Origin: an uncultured Spirochaetota bacterium
GTDB taxonomy: Bacteria; Spirochaetota; Spirochaetia; SZUA-6; Fen-1364
Assembly: GCA_963734545.1 (NCBI GenBank)
Contig: CAVTHO010000005.1
Location: 640,001-704,000, forward strand
Direction of reading: 5' to 3'
DNA length: 64,000 bases
Part shown: positions 46,105 to 55,656 of the stretch, piece by piece
Numbering within the stretch: the first letter of the stretch is position 1
Layout of the letters: each line of letters opens with the position of its first letter
Notes under the pieces: model-generated
Databases searched by the model: none
What the model was told of the DNA's origin: nothing
What the model saw: only the letters and a program-made list of their open reading frames with translations
Program-made: the position numbers and the translations under genes

Positions 46105-47257
46105 CTACTTGGAGATGACGATATTCCCCTGGTCGTCCACCACGTAGAGGAAGAAAGGCACCCCTTCGCGATCACCCTTGTCGGTGAATCCGATCTTGCC
46201 GGTGATCCCCGGGACTCCGTTCACCTTGTTGCGCAGGTAGTCGGCAAGCACGGTCCCGTCCGAGGCGCCGGACGCGTTCAGGGCATACGCGATGATGTTG
46301 ACAGCGTCTGCCGCGTAGACAGGCCACGGGCTGGAGGGGATCTCTCCGAACTTGTCCTTGTAGGCCTTGAGGAACTCGGCCGCCTCGCTGGTGGGAAGGT
46401 CTGCCGGGCAGGGGCTCGTTCGTCATGTAGCAGCCCTTGGCCATGTCGAGACCCGCAATCTTGACGAACTCGTCGTTGATCGCAGCATTTCCGCCCACGA
46501 ACGGGCAGGTGATCCCGATCTCCCGCGCCTGCGTGACAAGGAGCGCCGCCTCGGCATAGTAGCCGGTGTAGTACCACACATCGGGCTTGGCTTCCCGCAT
46601 CTTGGTGAGGGGAACGTGGAAATCTTTCTCCCCGGGGGTGATGGCATCGTAGTACACGATCTGCACCTTGCCCGCGTCCACCATCGGCTTCAGCGCGTCG
46701 CGCGCGTTTTCCGCCAGACCTTTTCCGAACGCGGTGTTGTCGTGCATGATCGCGATCCGCTTGGCGCCGAACTTCTGCGGGACGAAGCCTGGGCAAAGAA
46801 CTTGCCCCTGGTTGTCGTCCCGACCGCACGTGCGGAAGAAGTACTTCAGGCCATGCTCGGTGAGCCGCACCGCCGTGGAGCCGTAGGCGATGTTCACCAT
46901 CTTGCCCTTCTCGTAGATGTTCGAAGCCGGCTCGCTGATGGAGGAGCCGTACGTGGAAACCGAGGCCACGACGCCCTTGCGGCCCACGATCTTCGTGGCG
47001 GCCAGGGCGCCCGTCCGGGGCTGGCCGGCGTCGTCTTCCACGACGATCTGGATCTGCCGCCCGCCCAGGATCCCGCCTTTCTGGTTGATCAGCGCGGCCG
47101 CGATCTCGCAGGACTGCTTGGCCATCTGCCCCTCATAGGCCCAGGGTCCCGTGATGGGGCCCTGCAGGCCGATCAGGATCGGGCCCTTGTCAGCGGCGAA
47201 CCCCGCCAGGGCGCTCATCAGGATGAGAAGAATCGACACGAGTGCCATTCGCTTCAT
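46105..47257 (-). CDS. livK: Branched-chain amino acid ABC substrate-binding protein; frameshifts near 46790 and 46410
   Basis: Signal peptide, GPITG, FFRTCGRDD; the C-terminus continues in another frame to TAG at 46105. Confidence 0.88.
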
Positions 47258-47465: not shown

Positions 47466-48263
47466 ATGAGCGAGCAGCGAATGCCGTGGAATACCACGGC
47501 CGCCATGGATGTGAGGATCGTGCTGGTGAGACCGCGGGATCCCCGGAATGTCGGGGCGGCGTGCCGGGCAATGAAGTGCATGGGATTCACCTCCCTGGCA
47601 ATCGTCATGGATGAGCCGATCGATCCGAGGCAGGCGCGGACCGTGTCGCATTACGCCTCGGACGTGCTGGAGGGCGCCCTGATCTGCACCGACCCCCGGG
47701 ACGTCATCCAGGACGCGGTGCTCGTGGCCGGGACGACGCGCCGGCGGGGAAGGAGCAGGAAGTATTTCACCCTCTTTCCTGAACAGCTGGGCCGGCGTGT
47801 CGCCTCTATAGGGAAGGGAACCGTGGCCGTGCTGTTCGGAAACGAGGAAACGGGACTGACCGATGACGAGCTCGCCCTGTGCCACGTGGCGGTCACCATT
47901 CCCGCCTCTCCGGACTTTCCCTCGCTCAATCTCTCCCATGCCGTGCAGGTGATCTGCTACGAGATCTTCCGCGCGCAGAGCGCCGACCACCTGACGCCGT
48001 TTTCCCCGATAAGCGCCCAGGCAGTGGACGATCTGGTGTCGGTGGTCACCGGGTCTCTCTCGAAGATCGGATTTTTCACGATTGTGGGACCGGAACAGAT
48101 GGGTATCTTCTTCAAGGACATCCTGGGACGGGCGAGTCTCTCCGTGAGCGAGGCACGACGGCTGGGAGTCGTCTTCCGCAAGATCGCCGGGCTCGCGACG
48201 AAGAAGCAGCACGCCCCGCGCGCGCCGGCGAGGGGAATTGACCCGGGAGCGGATCCTCCATAG
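47466..48263 (+). CDS. trmJ: TrmJ/LasT family SPOUT RNA methyltransferase
   Basis: NVGAACRAMKCMG, LFGNEETGL, SLNLSHAV. Confidence 0.9.
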   Translation: MSEQRMPWNTTAAMDVRIVLVRPRDPRNVGAACRAMKCMGFTSLAIVMDEPIDPRQARTVSHYASDVLEGALICTDPRDVIQDAVLVAGTTRRRGRSRKYFTLFPEQLGRRVASIGKGTVAVLFGNEETGLTDDELALCHVAVTIPASPDFPSLNLSHAVQVICYEIFRAQSADHLTPFSPISAQAVDDLVSVVTGSLSKIGFFTIVGPEQMGIFFKDILGRASLSVSEARRLGVVFRKIAGLATKKQHAPRAPARGIDPGADPP

Positions 48264-48266
48264 TAT
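48238..48266 (+). promoter_or_regulatory. Sigma70-type promoter
   Basis: TTGACC-N17-TAGTAT; SD AAGGAG before 48286. Confidence 0.6.
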
Positions 48267-48285
48267 GGGCGCAAGGAGTCGTTCG

Positions 48286-48768
48286 ATGCGCAGATCTGTT
48301 CCGCTCCTGGCGTGCGTGATCCTCCTTCTGGGCGCCGTCGTTCTCCCCGCCCTTTCACGAGGGGACTTCGACAGGGTCGTGGACTTCTCCGTCACTTTGA
48401 AGACGCTCGCCGCGGCCGCGGACGGGAAGGCGCCCCTCCCCACCGGCAGGATGCTGCTGCTCTCCGGCACCGTCTCCGACGTCAACATTCTCAACAAGGA
48501 CGAACAGGGCTTCAAAGTCAGGATCGAGCTGATCACCGGCGAGTGGATCGGTCTCGAAGACGTGAAGGCGTATGCGTGCTATGTCGAGTTCAGCGGCCGC
48601 GAGTTCTTCAAGGTCTTCCCCGCGCGGGCGCCGCGCACGGCCACTCCGGATGTGATCACACTCAACTCGCGGGTCGTCGTCGTCTGCAGCGCGCTGGATA
48701 TCGTGAATACCCCCCAGGGGGAGAAGCACGTGCGCGCCGCGGGCGCCTACATCAGGGCCATCGAGTAG
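48286..48768 (+). CDS. Exported hypothetical protein (possible OB fold)
   Basis: Signal peptide, own promoter and SD, GC3-rich codons. Confidence 0.75.
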   Translation: MRRSVPLLACVILLLGAVVLPALSRGDFDRVVDFSVTLKTLAAAADGKAPLPTGRMLLLSGTVSDVNILNKDEQGFKVRIELITGEWIGLEDVKAYACYVEFSGREFFKVFPARAPRTATPDVITLNSRVVVVCSALDIVNTPQGEKHVRAAGAYIRAIE

Positions 48769-48801: not shown

Positions 48802-49929
48802 TCAGTCGAACGTCACGTCGCGCGCGCCGATTGTTCCCGTGTCCGCTGACAGCGCCGCCCTTTCCATCACGTTGCGAAGCTCGCGTATATTGCCCGGCCA
48901 GTCATGCGCGCAGAGTTTCTCCCGCGCTTCCACGGCAATGGCACCCGGTCTCTTCAGCAGCGAAAGAAAGTGCGCCGCGAGGATCGGGATGTCCTCCCTT
49001 CGCTCCCGCAGCGGGGGGACCCTGATGGGCAGGACGCCGAGCCGGTAAAAAAGGTCGGCGCGGAACCCGCCCTCTCCCGCGTGCCCCTTGAGCTCCCTGT
49101 TCGTCGCCGACACGACACGCACGTCCAGGGGGATTGCGCGGCTGCCGCCTACCCGTGTCAGCTCCTTCTGTTCGATGATCCGGAGAAGCCGGGTCTGCGC
49201 GGCCGGGGACATCTCTCCGATCTCGTCGAGAAAAAGCGTGCCGCCGTTGGCCTGCTCGAAGCTGCCCGGGCGGCATACCGCATCGGTGAATGCGCCCTTC
49301 TCCGCGCCGAACAGCTCGGTCTCCAGGAGCGTTTCGGGAAGCGCGCCGCAGTTGAGGGCGACGCAGGGTCCGCCCCGTCTGCGAGAGGTCTCGTGGATGG
49401 ACCTGGCCACGAGCTCCTTGCCCGTGCCGCTTTCACCCAGGATGAGAACCGGAGAATCCGACGGCGCATAGCGAAGGATGAGCTGCTTCACCTCGCGTAT
49501 GCACGCGCTCTCCCCGATGAGCGACTCCAGAAGCGCCTGGCCGGCGGCGGACGCCGCTGCCCGGCGCGCATCCGCCCCGCTCACGACGGTGCGGAGCGTG
49601 CCCAGGAGCTCCTTCAGCTCGTAGGGCTTGACGATGTAGTCGCATGCGCCCGCCAGTATCGCCTCCTTCACCAGCCGGGGGTCTGTCAGCGCGGTCAGCA
49701 TCACGACGGGCGGCGGCAGGGGCCGGGCCACGATTGCCTTGAGCGCCGCGATGCCGTCCAGATCGGGGAGGTTGATATCAAGGAGAACGACATCCGCTGA
49801 TTCATGCGCGGCGGCCTCGATTCCCTGCCGGGCCGTGTATGCCGAGATCAGCACATAGGGCTCGGGGAGCACCATGTCGAGCGTCCGGTGCGCCTGGGGA
49901 TCATCGTCGATGAAGAGGACTTTTACCAT
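48802..49929 (-). CDS. Sigma54-dependent REC-AAA+ activator lacking the C-terminal HTH
   Basis: IDDD..LDINLP..KP; GESGTGKE, GAFTDA, FLDEIGE, FRADLFYRL, WPGNIREL; stop follows about 20 aa later. Confidence 0.92.
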   Translation of the reverse strand: MVKVLFIDDDPQAHRTLDMVLPEPYVLISAYTARQGIEAAAHESADVVLLDINLPDLDGIAALKAIVARPLPPPVVMLTALTDPRLVKEAILAGACDYIVKPYELKELLGTLRTVVSGADARRAAASAAGQALLESLIGESACIREVKQLILRYAPSDSPVLILGESGTGKELVARSIHETSRRRGGPCVALNCGALPETLLETELFGAEKGAFTDAVCRPGSFEQANGGTLFLDEIGEMSPAAQTRLLRIIEQKELTRVGGSRAIPLDVRVVSATNRELKGHAGEGGFRADLFYRLGVLPIRVPPLRERREDIPILAAHFLSLLKRPGAIAVEAREKLCAHDWPGNIRELRNVMERAALSADTGTIGARDVTFD

Positions 49930-50057
49930 TTCAGATCAACTTTCTCGCTGGCGGCAATGTACAGGAGCAGGAGGGAATCTGCAAGATCAGGTTCACACGC
50001 TCGTGATCGAGGTGTGCGCGGGCGTCATGGTGGTGTTGTATTGCGGGAAGGCTGCCC

Positions 50058-52325
50058 TTGAATATCAAACGATGGCTTGCGCTGACGCTCGTGAGTGTGT
50101 GCGGAGTGACGTGTGGACCGGCTGGCCCCACTGTCATCCGCGCTGAAAGAGTTTTCACCGGCCACGAGTTTATCGAAGATGTGACAATCCTCATCGAGGG
50201 CGGTCTGATCAGGGAGGTGGTGCCGACTGCAGAGTTCACACCGGTCGAGGGCAGCCAGGTCCTGGACGCGGCAGGAATGACGGTCGTTCCCGGCTTCATC
50301 GATTCACACGTGCACATCCTCGGCCAGCCCCTCGAGGTGCTCAGGAATATCGCGCAATACGGATGGGGCAGGGTGGCGGAGGAAGCGATCTCCCAGGTCC
50401 CGGGCAACCGCGAAGGGTATCTCCAAAGCGGGATCACTTCGGTGATCGACATGGGCTCCACGCTCGCCGGCATGCTGCGCCTGGAGGAAGGACTTGAAAC
50501 CGGGAGCCTGGTCGGCCCTGATCTCTATTTCAGCGGGCCTCTCTTCACAGCGCCGAACGGCCACCCGGCAGGCACGATCTACCGCGGCCAGCACGACCTG
50601 ATAGATAACGCAACCGTGCAGGTTGCGGCGTCCGACCCGGCAGCGAAGAAGGTTGTCGAGTTGGCGGACCGGGGCGTGGATTTCATCAAGCTCGTCTATG
50701 ACGACGGGACCTTCTACGCGGGCAGAGTCCCCCGTCTTGACCGCAGCATCGCGCGCGGGATCGCGGACCAGGCGCATTCACGCGGACTGCCGGTGATCGC
50801 TCACGTGGGCGGCCGCGAATCGGAGTTCGCCGACATGCTGGAGTGCGGAGTGAACGGCGTGGAGCACTGCTTCGCGTACAGCGGATCGGACACGGTGCTG
50901 CACGACATGGCGGCGCGCGGCGTTGTCTTCACGCCCACCCTGTCGATCTACGAAATCTACGCGAAGCAGACGATGCCCCGGATGCGGGAGAGCGTGGCAA
51001 AGGCCCGGGAGAACGGAGTACCGATAGCGGCGGGAACCGATTTCCCCTCTTCCCGCTTTACAACGGCCGGGCCGGGATTCTACCGGGAGCTTGCGCTCCT
51101 CGAGGAGGCCGGCTTGTCGCGGGTCGAGGTGCTCGAAGCGGCCACCGTGAACGGCGCGCGCAAGATCGGAAAGACGGCCGAGACGGGCAGCATCGCAGCG
51201 GGCCGGTTGGCCAACCTTGTTTTCTTCCGCGGGGACCTTCGGGAGGGCGCGATCAGCAGGGAACGCGTTCAGGCAGTGATGCTCCGAGGGAAAATGATGA
51301 TCGAGGAGGGGACCCTGACGGTGGAAAGCCGCAAAGGCCTGACCCGGCAGCCCCTCATGGTGTTCCCGTTCGGGTTCTACGAAACGGTCTCCGGTTTTTC
51401 CATGGGCGGCAGTCTCCTCGACTTCGACGTGCTGGGCTCGGGTGTCGCCCTCGGCCTCACCGCCACGTACAGCTTTTCCAACGCATTCGCAGCGGAGATC
51501 ACCGCATCCACGCCGAGCCCGATACCGCAGACGTCCCTCGACTTCCGGCTGGGCTATGACGGCTACCCGAAACGCTTTTTCGGCATGGACAATTCCACGA
51601 CGCGCGGGGCCGCGGTCACCTATGCATGGTCGGATTTCCAGGCGGCTGTCGCGTCAGCCACGACCCTTCTGCCTGCACTCAAGCTGAATACGGCATTCTC
51701 CCTGGATGCCGCAACGATCGGCGATTACAAGGGACAGGTCCTGCCGAGCATGACGGGAAGCTCCGCAGGAATCATGACGCTCGCGCGGGTGGAGATCGCT
51801 CACGACGCAAGGGATCTCGCGGCCGCGCCATGGTACGGGGACTACGAGGCCGTTGCCGGGGGTCTTTCGGCGCCCTTTCTCGGAAGCGCCTATACTTTCT
51901 CTACCGTTGATCTCGACCTCCGGTTTTTTTTCAGCATCTTCCCCCATCACGTCATCGCTGCCCGGCTGCTCTTCAAGCAATGCTTGGGAGATGCTCCCTT
52001 TTACGCCCGGCCCGACTTCGGCGGCTTTTCACTCGGTCGGGGTTTCCAACCGGACCGTTTCATCGGCAAGCTCGGCGCCTACGGTCAGCTGGAGTATCGC
52101 TTCCCCATATGGTCCCTCATCGGCGGGGACCTCTTCCTGGACGCGGGTCAGGTCCGGGATGATTATCAACGCTTCACACTTGCGGGCTTCCACCTGTGCG
52201 GCGGCGCCGGGCTTCGGTTCACATTCTCCGAGCGCTCGATCCTGTGCGTGGACGCGGGGTTCAACGGCGAGCCGCTCTCGTCGGAGGGGTTCACCATCAT
52301 CGTGCGCACGAGTCACGCGTTTTAG
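50058..52325 (+). CDS. Secreted amidohydrolase fused to a C-terminal Omp85 (BamA/TamA-type) beta-barrel
   Basis: Signal peptide; PGFIDSHVH, FIKL, AHV, VEH, AGTD, AATVNGA; then ~320 aa of beta-strands with LGRGFQPDRF, QLEYRF, LFLDAG, GAGLRF and a terminal Phe. Confidence 0.85.
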   Translation: MNIKRWLALTLVSVCGVTCGPAGPTVIRAERVFTGHEFIEDVTILIEGGLIREVVPTAEFTPVEGSQVLDAAGMTVVPGFIDSHVHILGQPLEVLRNIAQYGWGRVAEEAISQVPGNREGYLQSGITSVIDMGSTLAGMLRLEEGLETGSLVGPDLYFSGPLFTAPNGHPAGTIYRGQHDLIDNATVQVAASDPAAKKVVELADRGVDFIKLVYDDGTFYAGRVPRLDRSIARGIADQAHSRGLPVIAHVGGRESEFADMLECGVNGVEHCFAYSGSDTVLHDMAARGVVFTPTLSIYEIYAKQTMPRMRESVAKARENGVPIAAGTDFPSSRFTTAGPGFYRELALLEEAGLSRVEVLEAATVNGARKIGKTAETGSIAAGRLANLVFFRGDLREGAISRERVQAVMLRGKMMIEEGTLTVESRKGLTRQPLMVFPFGFYETVSGFSMGGSLLDFDVLGSGVALGLTATYSFSNAFAAEITASTPSPIPQTSLDFRLGYDGYPKRFFGMDNSTTRGAAVTYAWSDFQAAVASATTLLPALKLNTAFSLDAATIGDYKGQVLPSMTGSSAGIMTLARVEIAHDARDLAAAPWYGDYEAVAGGLSAPFLGSAYTFSTVDLDLRFFFSIFPHHVIAARLLFKQCLGDAPFYARPDFGGFSLGRGFQPDRFIGKLGAYGQLEYRFPIWSLIGGDLFLDAGQVRDDYQRFTLAGFHLCGGAGLRFTFSERSILCVDAGFNGEPLSSEGFTIIVRTSHAF

Positions 52326-52367: not shown

Positions 52368-53114
52368 TCAGTGTCGATCGCGTGGTCCCCACCGCCATCG
52401 CCAGAGAGGCCGGGTGAAGTTCGGTCTGCCGGGACCATCCGCCCGCGCGGGGGCAGCCGCGACTGCGGTTCCCCCCTCGATCCAGACGTTGATGCTGCGC
52501 GCCACCTCGTCGTCAAGGGCGATGCTCGCCCCCTCGCATTCAATCACGTACGACGGGTACTCCTGGTGGAGCTTGACGACCCCGCCCGGGCGTATCTGCA
52601 GCGAGGTGAGCCGATGAAGCTGCTGGTCGCTTTTTGTGTACACGTATGCGACCCGGGCCGACTGCCCGATCTTCAGCTCTGTCAGGGGCACGATCAGCTT
52701 CTGCACGTAGCGCGCCGAAACCCGGCAGCATTCCCCCTCGGGGATGGGGAACCCATGCGGGCACTCACGGGGATGCCCGAGGAGCGTGCAGATCCCTTCC
52801 ACGATTTCCGTGTTGAGAATGTGCTCGAACTCGCACGCGCCCGGCTCGAACTCCCTGCCCAGCACGTCATGGATGAGCCGCTCGCCTATTCTGTGGGCGC
52901 GGATGAGCCGCTCGGCGTGCGCGGAGCCTGCCTCGGTGAGTGAGATCTCGTCACCTGCCCGGACCACGAGACTGTCCCGCGCGAGCCCGGCAAGGTCCGC
53001 ATCCCGATACCGGTCCGCAAGCTCTCCGCGCAGGGCCGGCACGGTGGAGCAGCCCCGCTCCCGAAGCTGCCAGAGGCGCTCGAGCATCTCGTCCCGATCG
53101 TTCGCGCCGTTCAC
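52368..53114 (-). CDS. DtxR/MntR-like metalloregulator with a C-terminal FeoA domain
   Basis: GTGA overlap with the feoB stop; LTEAG, RAHRIGER, ACEFEH, LGHPRECPHG.PIP, PLTELKIG..IRPG. Confidence 0.88.
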   Translation of the reverse strand: MNGANDRDEMLERLWQLRERGCSTVPALRGELADRYRDADLAGLARDSLVVRAGDEISLTEAGSAHAERLIRAHRIGERLIHDVLGREFEPGACEFEHILNTEIVEGICTLLGHPRECPHGFPIPEGECCRVSARYVQKLIVPLTELKIGQSARVAYVYTKSDQQLHRLTSLQIRPGGVVKLHQEYPSYVIECEGASIALDDEVARSINVWIEGGTAVAAAPARADGPGRPNFTRPLWRWRWGPRDRH

Positions 53115-55097
53115 AGGCCGAGCGCTCCCGCCGCAAGAACCAGGAACCCGTGCACCGCGCCGGTGAGGACAAAGGACATCAGGTAGATGCCGATCACGAT
53201 GAGGACGGCGACCCGCGCGCCCAGCTCCTTGAACACGGCCGCGATGTTGGCGAAGCACTGCGCAAACGTGACGAGGAGCACCACCGCCACGACGCTCTGC
53301 ACGCCGTTGAGGATCCCATCCCGTGACATCCGGAGGATCAGGCCGGCCGCGGCCTCGCTGCGCGCCAGGGTGAGAAGCAGGGCATCCACCATGTCCAGGG
53401 GAAGCCCCAGCCAGCCGGTCATGAGCGGCTTCAGGGCCTGCTTCAGGAGCGCCAGGATCCCGAGCTTGTCGATGACGAACATGGCAAGCGCCGCGACCAG
53501 AAAGATGGGGATCGCTTCCCGCAGGAACCAGAGCAGCCGGTATCCTGTTTTTCTGGCGACCGCGGATATGCGCGGCATCCGGATGGGGGGAAGCTCCTGG
53601 ATGAACTGGCTCCCCTTTTCTGCCGGGCAGGATCCTGTTGAGCACGAGGCCGACACCGACCTCCGCCAGCACGAGGAACGCGAAGGCAACGGCGAAATAC
53701 GAAAGCCCGTGCTGGCCGAGGATGGCAATGGCCAGACCCATCTGGGCGGAGCAGGGGATCGCGAAGGCGATGAGGGCGATGACGATGATCTTTTCCTTGC
53801 GGGACTGCAGGTTGCGCGCCGTCATCGTGGCCATGGTCTTGCAGCCGAACCCGAGCACGAGAGGGACGACCGCGTTGCCGGTGATCCCGATCTTTTCTGA
53901 CAACCGCCGGGTGAGGATGGCCAGATTGGGCAGGTACCCGATGTCCTCCAGGAGCCCGAACACGAAAAAGAAGACGGAAAGAATCGGGAGCACCGTGGTG
54001 AGTGAGTTGAAGAGACCGAGTGTGAGAAGCCCGTGGGGCCCGATGAGCAGGTCCTTCCACACGCCGGCGGGAAGAAGAGTACCCACCTCTCTCACCACGG
54101 GGTCAGAAAGCGCCGTTGTAAGGAACAGCGAGAGCGCGCCCGCGACCCCGACGACCATGAGGTAAACGACAACGAGGAAGAACCCGAGGATGGGCAATCC
54201 ATACAGTGGGTGGCGGCACATGCGCGCGAAGGTCTCGGAAAAGCGCGGCTGCGGCGCCCTGGTGGAGGTCGAAACGGCCGCCGCCACCTCGTCCACCCAG
54301 CGGTTCCTGCGCGCGCTCAAGCTTATTCCCGCCTTGCCGGCAAAGCCCGACCTGATCCCCTCCAGCTCTGCTTCCCGGCCTTCGCGCACCGGGTTCCCGA
54401 ACGAGCTCGAGAGGAAGTCACGGAATGAGGGATCGTTTTCCAGGAGAAGGACCGCGGTCTCATGGGGGTGGGGACAGCGCGGCGAGAGCAGGCCGGCAAC
54501 CCTGGCGATTGCCGCATCGAGGGAGCTGCCATAGCGCAGCGGAAGCGGCGCGGAGACGGGCGCCAGGAGGATCCGGGCGAGCTCGGGGATACCTCTGCCG
54601 GGCGCGGGAGACTGCACCACGGGCACCCCCAGCAGGCGGGACAGCTTCTCCGCATCGAGAGACAGGCCCCTCTGCGCGCTCTCCCCCACGGCGGTAAGGA
54701 CCAGGACGAGGGGAATGCCGAGACCCATCAGGTCCGCGGTCAGGAGCAGCGATTCCTTGAACCGATTGGCATCCACGCATTGGACGAGGACGTCCGGGGC
54801 CTCCTCGAAAATCAGGGAGCGCACCACCAGCTCCTCTTCCGATTGTATGTAAAGACCGTGCAGTCCCGGTGTGTCCGCCACCTCCCAGCATTCGTCCTGC
54901 TCGAAACAGACCTGTTTCGCCACTTCCACGGTGGTCGACGGATAATTGGAAACCAGCTTGTACGCGCCGGTGAGGCTGTTGAAAAGCTGGCTCTTGCCGC
55001 TGTTCGGCAGCCCGACAATGTCGATGCGCTTGGGCCGGAGGCTTGCCGCTTCCTGTGAGCCTGTTCCCGCGCCTGCAGTTTTACGAATGAGATTCAT
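53111..55097 (-). CDS. feoB: Ferrous iron transporter B; frameshift near 53625; start at 55097 or 55133
   Basis: GLPNSGKS, NYPSTTVE, DTPG, LEDIGYL, LGFGC, IPCSAQ; ELPP..MP and the C-terminal gate lie in ORF 53111..53728. Confidence 0.92.
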
Positions 55098-55102
55098 TCT
55101 CA
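55088..55102. promoter_or_regulatory. Fur-box-like 7-1-7 inverted repeat at the feoB 5' end
   Basis: TGAGATT-C-ATTCTCA, an AT-rich palindrome in a GC-rich background. Confidence 0.6.
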
Positions 55103-55136
55103 AATCATGAGCACGCCTATCCCTGCTTGCCATTCG

Positions 55137-55565
55137 CTACTTCATCCTGCACGAAGCGCAGATGCCCCGTATCCCCAGTCGATGCTCGATGGGCTGGAAA
55201 CCGTGCTTTCCGCACACCTTGTTTTGAAGCGTCTCCAGCTCGTCGTCCTTGAACTCGATGATCGTGCCGCAGACTATGCACTCGAGGTGGTCGTGGTGCT
55301 CGTGCCCCCACACGTGCTCATAGCGGGCGCGCCCCCGCGAGCGCAGCGTCTCCTTGATGATTCCGCTCTTTACGAACAAGGGGAGTGTCCGGTAGATCGT
55401 GGCCGTGGAGAGCTTCTCCCCTTTTTTCTTCAACGAATCGAGCAGCTCGTCGGCGTCGAAGTGGCCCTCGGCCGCGATGATCCCCATGAGGATCGCGTTC
55501 CTCGCGGAGGTGAAGGTGAGACCATTCTCCTTCAGATAGCTGCGAAAGTGCTCCGCCTGGTCCAT
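55137..55565 (-). CDS. fur: Fur family transcriptional regulator
   Basis: TSAR..I, HFDADEL, ATIYRTL, HHDHLECIVCG, CASC. Confidence 0.93.
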   Translation of the reverse strand: MDQAEHFRSYLKENGLTFTSARNAILMGIIAAEGHFDADELLDSLKKKGEKLSTATIYRTLPLFVKSGIIKETLRSRGRARYEHVWGHEHHDHLECIVCGTIIEFKDDELETLQNKVCGKHGFQPIEHRLGIRGICASCRMK

Positions 55566-55567
55566 TG

Positions 55568-55616
55568 TGTGACTGATTTTCACTCTCATTCTATGCCCGG
55601 CACCGCCTACTGTCAA
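55568..55616 (-). promoter_or_regulatory. Sigma70 promoter of fur with overlapping Fur-box-like sites
   Basis: TTGACA-N17-TAGAAT followed by TGAGAGTGAAAATCAGTCACA. Confidence 0.65.
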
Positions 55617-55656
55617 GCCGCGCCCTGTTGTGATATGCATCCCTCAGGGAGCCTTG

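Follow-up and report, generated by a model that had tools for sequence, protein, structure and literature searches.

A metal-dependent amidohydrolase joined to a POTRA-less Omp85-type barrel in an uncultured spirochaete, a candidate enzyme tethered to the outer membrane

The 64,000-nt stretch of contig CAVTHO010000005.1 analysed here (the window), from an uncultured Spirochaetota bacterium, carries at 50058..52325 on the forward strand one unbroken open reading frame (ORF) of 755 aa with a TTG start, in which a metal-dependent amidohydrolase is followed by an Omp85-type outer-membrane beta-barrel. Coordinates below refer to the window unless a locus name precedes them, and residue numbers refer to the 755-aa protein. 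The parts of the gene are as follows.

50045..50051, + strand: candidate ribosome-binding site, the purine-rich GGGAAGG, 6 nt before the TTG, found by sequence inspection
50058..50120, + strand: predicted signal peptide, residues 1-21, with an n-region containing K4 and R5, the hydrophobic segment WLALTLVSV, and C15 and C19
50130..51305, + strand: metal-dependent amidohydrolase domain, residues 25-416, of the cog1228 / peptidase M38 type, a composite beta-sandwich plus (beta/alpha)8 barrel
50307..50315, + strand: metal ligands H84-x-H86, strand 1, placed by alignment to 9kov
50688..50690, + strand: K211, the expected carboxylated bridging lysine, aligned to the Lys of 9kov
50802..50804, + strand: metal ligand H249, strand 5, placed by alignment to 9kov
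50865..50867, + strand: metal ligand H270, strand 6, placed by alignment to 9kov
51039..51041, + strand: D328, metal ligand and general base, strand 8, placed by alignment to 9kov
51306..51353, + strand: linker, residues 417-432 (16 aa), with a short helix at 422-428 in the model secondary structure, no stop and no second start signal
51354..52322, + strand: predicted 16-strand Omp85-type beta-barrel of noNterm-like subtype, residues 433-755, from Pfam, NCBIfam, models and Foldseek
51987..52070, + strand: loop 6 equivalent, residues 644-671, between strands 11 and 12, carrying the lid motif
52035-52046, + strand: lid motif G660-R661-G662-F663, in the loop 6 equivalent
52134..52148, + strand: F693-L-D695-A-G697 (FxDxG), strand 13, lock partner of loop 6
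52290..52325, + strand: last strand and C-terminal beta-signal, residues 745-755 ending in H-A-F, with the stop codon; the modelled strand covers 745-752

The gene call recorded for the host genome gives a protein of 744 aa (P0002) instead of 755 aa. The TTG start was favoured over this call because the GGGAAGG run lies 7-13 nt 5' of the TTG and because a homologue, P0003 (78% identical), begins with a Met aligned with it (MIVQRWLAL vs LNIKRWLAL). The 744-aa call was regarded as too short, since its start would cut off the charged n-region of the signal peptide. Residues 1-21 had a predicted local distance difference test score (pLDDT) <50 in the full-length AlphaFold2 model, and the N-termini of the homologues are hydrophobic leaders with AxA-like ends. 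The G+C content is 0.61-0.66 across the fusion gene and similar in the flanks. The continuity of the reading frame was also seen in Logan contigs from other sequencing runs, which cross the junction of the two halves with mismatches only and 0 gaps: X1 record 7 (51159-51514, 17 mismatches) and X4 record 20 (51235-51434, 12 mismatches) cover the whole linker, and X3 record 14 (51323-51474, 0 mismatches) begins within the linker and ends in the barrel.

The N-terminal half belongs to the Pfam families Amidohydro_1 / Amidohydro_3, with Amidohydro_1 (PF01979) matched over residues 75-413 (96.4 bits, cut-off 25, E 2.6e-27). Its sequence matches in the PDB were 9kov, 2p9b, 3mtw, 8ihq and 3feq, and Foldseek gave template modelling (TM) scores, normalised to the target, of 0.78-0.86 to 9kov, 3feq, 3mtw, 8yak and related cog1228 structures; with the full-length model the top 50 matches were amidohydrolases only. 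Among the enzymes matched by this half were the Lys/Arg carboxypeptidase Cc2672 (3mtw), prolidases (3feq/3n2c, 3mkv, 2qs8), an Arg carboxypeptidase (3be7), ochratoxinases (8ihq, 4c5y) and a Thermonema amidohydrolase (9kov). In the alignment to 9kov all six ligands are present (H84, H86, K211, H249, H270, D328), so that the (beta/alpha)8 fold and the HxH, Lys, His, His, Asp set of the binuclear cog1228 / M38 subtype are found together; the bridging role of K211 was taken from the description of M38 in the available text of PMC11511702. The enzyme of the window protein is thus, as predicted from sequence and model, most likely a catalytically competent binuclear metallo-amidohydrolase. Characterised cog1228 / M38 enzymes cut an amide next to a free alpha-carboxylate; their substrates are dipeptides (Xaa-Pro, Xaa-Arg and Xaa-Lys), ochratoxin A and N-acyl amino acids, among them long-chain ones, which are cut by N-acyl-amino-acid acylases (PMC11511702). 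By analogy, the reaction here is probably hydrolysis of an amide adjoining a free carboxylate, and the most likely candidate substrates would be peptide or peptidoglycan-stem C-termini and lipids of the N-acyl-amino-acid type.

The C-terminal half was assigned to Omp85 (PF01103) over residues 458-704 (35.4 bits, cut-off 24). It also matched NCBIfam NF047779 (Omp85_fam, noNterm-type) over residues 565-755, at 88.5 bits vs a cut-off of 200 and over profile positions 216-423 of 423, so by the curated rule the barrel, as judged from sequence, is related to this family but lies outside it. Two AlphaFold2 models were built, one of the full-length protein with a 25-sequence alignment (pLDDT 84.2, predicted TM score (pTM) 0.80) and one of the barrel alone with 50 sequences (pLDDT 93.8, pTM 0.89), and both show 16 long strands over residues 433-752. 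Foldseek with the barrel-only model returned 114 matches at E<=1e-3, led by TamA 4c00 (E 1.8e-13) and followed by BamA barrels (E 1e-12 to 1e-11), with query-normalised TM scores of 0.57-0.75 and 14-20% identity. The predicted barrel is thus of the 16-stranded BamA/TamA-like kind that defines the Omp85 superfamily. This likeness was seen by fold search only, a PDB sequence search with the barrel giving 0 matches at E<=1; a search of the ESM Atlas gave no usable match. In the family alignments A1 (25 sequences) and A2 (18 sequences), R661 and G662 of the lid are invariant, as is the terminal aromatic F755 (25/25 in A1, 18/18 in A2), in keeping with the lid-lock and the aromatic-terminus beta-signal of Omp85 proteins. 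No POTRA domain was reported by Pfam at E<=1 in the 755-aa protein, and the 16 residues between the last strand of the enzyme and strand 1 of the barrel leave no room for one; the POTRA domain of the BamA, TamA, TpsB and PlpD classes is therefore missing. The linker itself is well ordered in the full-length model (pLDDT about 88-95). When the N-domain (22-416) and the barrel (430-755) were submitted as a predicted complex, the scores were 0.45, 0.00 and 0.25 (mark 0.32), which points neither way.

The original prediction, made from the letters of the window alone, had described this gene as a single uninterrupted frame with a complete HxH, Lys, His, His, Asp amidohydrolase, a short linker free of POTRA, second start and second signal peptide, and a barrel of ~320 aa with an RGF lid (here GRGF, 660-663) and a terminal Phe. 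That architecture was borne out throughout, the 16 strands expected from AlphaFold appeared in both models, and the region at 51300-51360, where a stop or an indel might have separated two genes, is spanned without a gap by the contigs of other runs. The Cys-containing signal peptide was likewise present (C15, C19), but lipoprotein processing is unsupported because the Cys is not conserved across the family.

The architecture recurs widely. Among 57 proteins from the homologue search, 28 carry an amidohydrolase Pfam family together with PF01103; these are 447-802 aa long, range in identity from 78% down to 28%, and have JGI, ENA, NCBI and Logan as their sources. When the barrel alone was used as query in an exhaustive phmmer search (2802 matches at E<=1e-3, 18 at E<=1e-30), 11 further representatives of 734-770 aa were added, every one with an N-terminal Amidohydro_1 domain (11/11). 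In total 35 distinct fused proteins were collected (28-78% identical), and the fused form is also present at two metagenome loci, L113 with 742 aa and L114 with 752 aa. The members are labelled in the databases merely as "amidohydrolase family protein" or "imidazolonepropionase-like amidohydrolase". A profile search of genome contigs with the full alignment gave 80 loci, all of them stand-alone amidohydrolases matching the enzyme half only. The full ligand set HHKHHD was kept in 26 of the 35 distinct fused proteins and the H-x-H pair in 29. Elsewhere in the family, P0009 carries H249D on a barrel identical to that of the related genome G008, and P0016 has an internal deletion; both retain the barrel motifs.

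The nearest relatives of the enzyme domain that lack a barrel (P0035, P0048, P0050, P0052 and P0054) are 22-28% identical and multidomain; they pair the enzyme domain with PF07676, PF26549 and PF26550, some also with PF00930, and one carries the JGI label "Tol biopolymer transport system component". PF00930 is the N-terminal domain of DPP-IV and PF07676 the TolB-like PD40 repeat, which would hint that this amidohydrolase branch generally acts on envelope peptides.

Ten bacterial Omp85/TpsB subfamilies, including BamA, BamA-like, TamA, Lipo, noNterm, Metallo (PF00149), WD40, patatin/PlpD and two TpsB groups, are set out in the available text of Heinz & Lithgow 2014 (PMC4104836). None of them there has an amidohydrolase, and the word "amidohydrolase" has 0 occurrences in that text, in agreement with the claim of the original prediction that no such class had been described. 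In the titles and abstracts covered by our literature search no description of an amidohydrolase-Omp85 fusion was found; the combination may be tabulated without comment in InterPro/CDART. The design is thus conserved yet undescribed in print as far as those titles and abstracts go, and it belongs to a kind already known, namely Omp85 barrels with non-POTRA enzyme domains.

The best functional analogy is with the patatin-like Omp85 proteins PlpD and FplA ("type Vd"), in which, like the window protein, an N-terminal hydrolase and a C-terminal 16-strand barrel are made as one polypeptide. However, PlpD and FplA join a Ser-Asp patatin lipase to a POTRA domain, whereas the window protein has a binuclear metallo-amidohydrolase and no POTRA; its N-domain, being Amidohydro_1 / Amidohydro_3, is not the patatin-like lipase that marks type Vd. 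The Metallo-Omp85 proteins share with it a non-POTRA enzymatic N-domain on an Omp85 barrel, but theirs (PF00149) is of another enzyme superfamily than PF01979, and PF00149 was not among the Pfam matches of the window protein. The Metallo-Omp85 barrel is reported to be similar to noNterm barrels, from which it may have arisen (available text of PMC4104836), and here similarly the next relatives of the window barrel are stand-alone barrels of 340-420 aa. The noNterm Omp85 proteins of Leptospira (LIC12252/12254/12258) have the same barrel type, with a loop-6 (L/M)RG(W/Y)-like motif, FxDxG and no POTRA; they carry 22-43 periplasmic residues according to the part of PMC11358297 available, in contrast to the 395-residue enzyme that precedes the window barrel, and the stand-alone barrels of spirochaetes are <=35% identical to it. 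BamA and TamA share the barrel fold, the lid-lock motifs and the terminal aromatic residue, but they have POTRA domains, and the host has a separate BamA. On the enzyme side, the cog1228 / M38 enzymes (3mtw; Sgx9260b/c, 3mkv and 3feq/3n2c; ADH3, 8ihq and 4c5y; PmAcy/BurkAcy) share the fold, the six ligands and the expected reaction type; those described in the available text of PMC11511702 are oligomers, mostly octamers, whereas the window enzyme is predicted to be membrane-tethered.

On balance it appears probable that the amidohydrolase sits at the outer membrane's periplasmic face, tethered by a POTRA-less Omp85 barrel, and acts there on an envelope substrate. The single polypeptide would be exported by Sec, and its C-terminal 16-strand barrel would be integrated into the outer membrane by the machinery for beta-barrel assembly (BAM) by means of the terminal-Phe beta-signal. 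The N-terminal enzyme would remain periplasmic and be held against the outer membrane's inner face, where it could trim the C-terminus of a peptide or peptidoglycan stem or the head of an N-acyl-amino-acid-like lipid. The barrel would then serve as an anchor and positioning device and not as a secretion pore. In BamA, TamA and FhaC strand 1 is entered from the periplasmic side, and at its C-terminus (strand 16) the chain comes back to the periplasmic rim. This strand topology, together with the 16-residue linker, the intact lid-lock motifs and the folded, metal-containing nature of the passenger, makes a periplasmic enzyme the most likely arrangement. Such a tether matches the revised topology of PlpD, whose enzyme domain was reported to be kept in the periplasm when the secretion model was overturned (Hanson et al. 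2024, available text of PMC11116518). The original prediction had also offered a barrel that feeds a periplasmic hydrolase; the periplasmic hydrolase survives, but the feeding has no support, the lid-lock motifs being intact.

If this tethered arrangement holds, the amidohydrolase would be a third enzyme class on the Omp85 scaffold, after patatin and metallophosphatase, and the principle of holding an enzyme at the membrane in this way would be general. Omp85 proteins are known as machines for protein assembly and translocation. The 2024 revision of PlpD suggested, in the text available, that the scaffold is also used to hold periplasmic enzymes at the outer membrane (PMC11116518). The fusion would furthermore offer a tractable case for what a POTRA-less Omp85 barrel contributes, be it an anchor, membrane thinning or substrate presentation, and it is a pointer to an envelope amidase, both in spirochaetes and in bacteria of wetlands and sediments. 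Two features treated below also bear on function: the recurrent loss of catalytic residues in the family and the exchange of partner for an Lnt-like enzyme.

Several observations weigh against this assignment. The identity to characterised enzymes is just 20-27%, and the score for NCBIfam NF051886 (Xaa-Pro dipeptidase equivalog, residues 37-413) was 127.5 bits vs a cut-off of 500, far too low for membership; therefore its substrate cannot be transferred. No match to PF13444, the family of aminolipid N-acyltransferases, was found in the host genome (G000) or in the related genomes G008 and G013 (84-89% complete), so that an N-acyl-amino-acid lipid substrate gains no support from these genomes. 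Similarly, LpxC (PF03331), a marker of lipid synthesis, was not found in the host genome (89% complete). The gene context gives no substrate clue, because the neighbourhoods are not conserved: the window has a sigma-54 response regulator, DtxR/FeoA-FeoB and Fur, and G008, with nothing in common, has radical SAM/SPASM, an alpha/beta hydrolase, an M20 peptidase and two fatty-acid desaturases. The side of the barrel on which the enzyme lies was inferred from Omp85 strand topology and linker length, and 16 extended residues could in principle span the membrane. Finally, at least two ligands are substituted in seven of the 35 members (P0029, P0030, P0031, P0034, P0061, P0069 and P0076), so that catalysis cannot be universally required. 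A further protein, P0064 (587 aa), has a decayed N-domain. All of these members retain the barrel motifs and are, judging by their sequences, candidate pseudoenzymes. Since the ligands are kept in the lineage of the window and repeatedly lost elsewhere, catalysis would be conserved in the former and lost repeatedly in the latter, a pattern that hints at an extra, non-catalytic role. As to substrates, two candidates were set aside along the way: aminolipid, which after the PF13444 result was kept as one candidate class only, and lipid A, which was rejected after the LpxC result.

Surface display is the alternative that survives best, although we hold it to be improbable. Here the barrel would move the amidohydrolase across the outer membrane onto external peptides or xenobiotic amides, as the original prediction had envisaged with its "type V-like" label. 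The order of passenger and then barrel is that of autotransporters and of the original type Vd model of PlpD (cited in the available text of PMC4104836). Metal-dependent bile salt hydrolases of Bilophila, which are cog1228-like, are reported to have signal peptides and supernatant activity (available text of PMC13081902), and the gene occurs in wetland and sediment metagenomes, where scavenging of extracellular amides is plausible. However, there is no POTRA, the linker has just 16 residues and the barrel-closing lid-lock motifs are intact, while the passenger would be a folded, metal-containing triosephosphate-isomerase-type barrel of ~43 kDa, unlike the beta-helical passengers of autotransporters, with relatives that are oligomeric and mostly octameric in the available description (PMC11511702). 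Since the secretion model of PlpD itself was also overturned (PMC11116518), display at the surface is not favoured over the periplasmic tether.

The seven ligand-poor members and the decayed P0064, all with barrel motifs kept, could alternatively mean that the barrel retains an Omp85 role in assembly or translocation and that the amidohydrolase fold replaces POTRA as a binding or regulatory module, its catalysis being secondary or dispensable. Protein assembly is also the conservative hypothesis for Omp85 subfamilies of unknown role in what is available of Heinz & Lithgow (PMC4104836). We consider this account decidedly unlikely: the full ligand set in the window protein and 25 others is an argument that catalysis is under selection, the fused gene has no conserved client or partner gene beside it, and the host genome already has BamA.

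To much the same low degree it may be that the barrel is a substrate channel, which would admit an external amide for cleavage by the tethered periplasmic hydrolase and so form a catabolic unit coupled to uptake. A tether at the periplasmic mouth would fit such a unit, the short and ordered linker keeping the enzyme near the barrel, but to our knowledge no Omp85 member is a small-molecule porin. Furthermore, solved Omp85 barrels are shut by loop 6 locked to FxDxG (available text of PMC11358297), and both motifs are conserved here. The weakest explanation, that adjacent amidohydrolase and noNterm Omp85 genes were joined by an indel error, has some precedent in the frame errors of the host assembly (BamA over three frames, FeoB in the window over two, FlaA matches split) but is essentially refuted and its chance negligible, as the fusion recurs in the 35 distinct proteins from independent assemblies, in G008 and in the metagenome loci L113 and L114, the contigs of other runs cross the linker without a gap, and the barrel N-terminus lacks a signal peptide or start signal, unlike the true stand-alone barrel P0059.

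The tethered-enzyme reading should be set beside a group of close barrels with another partner. In three metagenome loci the barrel is a separate gene, 57-61% identical to that of the window and with its own signal peptide (P0059), as follows.

L110:5373-7972, L111:5364-7972 and L112:4746-7354: Lnt-like gene and stand-alone barrel, translationally coupled

In all three the ATG of the barrel overlaps the TGA of the upstream gene (ATGA overlap). The upstream gene encodes LNT_N and CN_hydrolase domains, and its scores of 96.5 and 90 bits lie below the Lnt equivalog cut-off of 132.9. L110 and L111 also carry a HisKA_3 histidine kinase upstream. No description of Lnt paired with Omp85 was found in the literature, within the titles and abstracts covered. 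A quick maximum-likelihood tree of 56 barrels (midpoint root, support from the Shimodaira-Hasegawa-like approximate likelihood-ratio test, SH-aLRT, only) placed 29 fused, 3 Lnt-coupled and 3 fragmentary barrels in one fused-family clade (support 99); P0034 falls outside this clade, and its branch is long and unreliable. A nested set of five rows (support 98) unites the Lnt-coupled barrels with those of the window and P0003, so this tree could most simply be read to mean that the amidohydrolase was lost secondarily and the partner switched. Among 14 stand-alone barrel loci in other spirochaete genomes, the neighbours were diverse and no Lnt-like gene was present in the 19 neighbour ORFs scanned.

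A further protein, P0192 (857 aa), has Lnt-like transmembrane helices, a CN_hydrolase domain at 256-451, a signal-peptide-like segment and an Omp85 barrel at 577-813, and is either a genuine fusion that spans both membranes, inner and outer, or two genes with no stop codon between them. In the tree its barrel groups with the stand-alone barrels, and it is just 29% identical to that of the window, from which we infer that this pairing of CN_hydrolase with a barrel arose independently. Taken together these cases suggest a portable barrel module serving enzymes of acyl C-N bonds. A more specific version, which we offer tentatively and rate as unlikely, is that the barrel clade is an outer-membrane module giving periplasm-facing acyl C-N enzymes access to N-acylated envelope molecules such as lipoproteins or amino-acid lipids. 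The cog1228 amidohydrolase, the fused partner in most lineages, would then break an amide, and the coupled Lnt-like N-acyltransferase, which replaces it beside the closest relatives of the window barrel, would make one, a pair of roles to which we attach the same low probability; if true, this would be a previously unknown system for N-acyl remodelling at the level of the outer membrane. Paralogues of Lnt are present in G000, G008 and G013. One of three LNT_N matches, at G000:C7:995277-995741 (L120), lies in an 849-aa frame that is longer than a usual Lnt and may carry an extra domain.

The host genome (G000) is that of a diderm spirochaete in which the lipopolysaccharide (LPS) marker LpxC was not detected, because it has BamA followed by a Skp-like gene and carries FlaA, the spirochaete flagellar sheath protein, at two loci (5 matches, frame-split; 0 of 14 control genomes matched). 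The lack of an LpxC match beside BamA and Skp fits an LPS-less spirochaete, the genome being 89% complete. Among 41 related genomes the full-length fusion was found in G000 and G008 only (62% identity). A fragment at a contig end in G013 is 77% identical, and a 43-residue piece in G024 is 56% identical; no fused form was found in the other 17 of 21 same-genus genomes or in the remaining 19 of 20 family- and order-level genomes. The barrel-region matches in G012, G033 and G034 are 28-33% identical and lie in frames of 364-407 aa, the size of a stand-alone barrel. When 401 genomes were sampled evenly over the phylum, 107 gave a barrel match at E<=1e-10; the frame was of fused size in G000 only (772 aa), and the others were 235-568 aa long and <=35% identical. 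The fusion gene is thus patchy, even within its own genus.

In the window the fusion gene is monocistronic, with a sigma-54 response regulator diverging from it on one side and iron genes converging on it from the other. No RNA data set was listed among those containing the gene. The sigma-70 promoter scan gave 0 sites, and the sole terminator-like site of the terminator scan is inside the fusion gene on the opposite strand. No sigma-54 -24/-12 consensus with <=2 mismatches was present in 49930-50057, and a near-match seen upstream by eye was rejected for its wrong spacing; over the whole window 33 consensus matches were counted vs a shuffle mean of 58.8, that is, fewer than in shuffled sequence. 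Two-component regulators adjoin the fused gene in two unrelated contexts: in L114 a PAS/GAF HisKA_3 kinase (L114:2456-5662) ends 30 nt before it, and in the window it stands beside the divergent sigma-54 response regulator (48802-49929, - strand). Two genes upstream of the fusion, between a SpoU methylase gene and the response regulator, a 176-aa ORF (48238-48768, + strand) begins with a hydrophobic leader and had no Pfam or NCBIfam match. In G008, two ORFs without a Pfam match lie directly upstream of the fused gene on the same strand (L109:8276-9382 and L109:9298-10476, both - strand); on the opposite strand the former overlaps a 677-aa ORF and the latter an FA_desaturase ORF, and either may be spurious.

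The iron cluster convergent to the fusion gene (52368-55640, - strand) contains Fur (55137-55640) and FeoB, and its long ORF ends at the 3' side with a DtxR-type Fe_dep_repr_C domain and a FeoA domain. FeoB is frame-split over 52368-55133 and 53111-53728, and the frame-split BamA of the host lies at G000:C7:580363-583518 (L083). Elsewhere in the window, the C-terminal part of a Peripla_BP_6 ORF (46172-47257) reads as if translated out of frame, its Pfam match stopping at residue 284 of 361.

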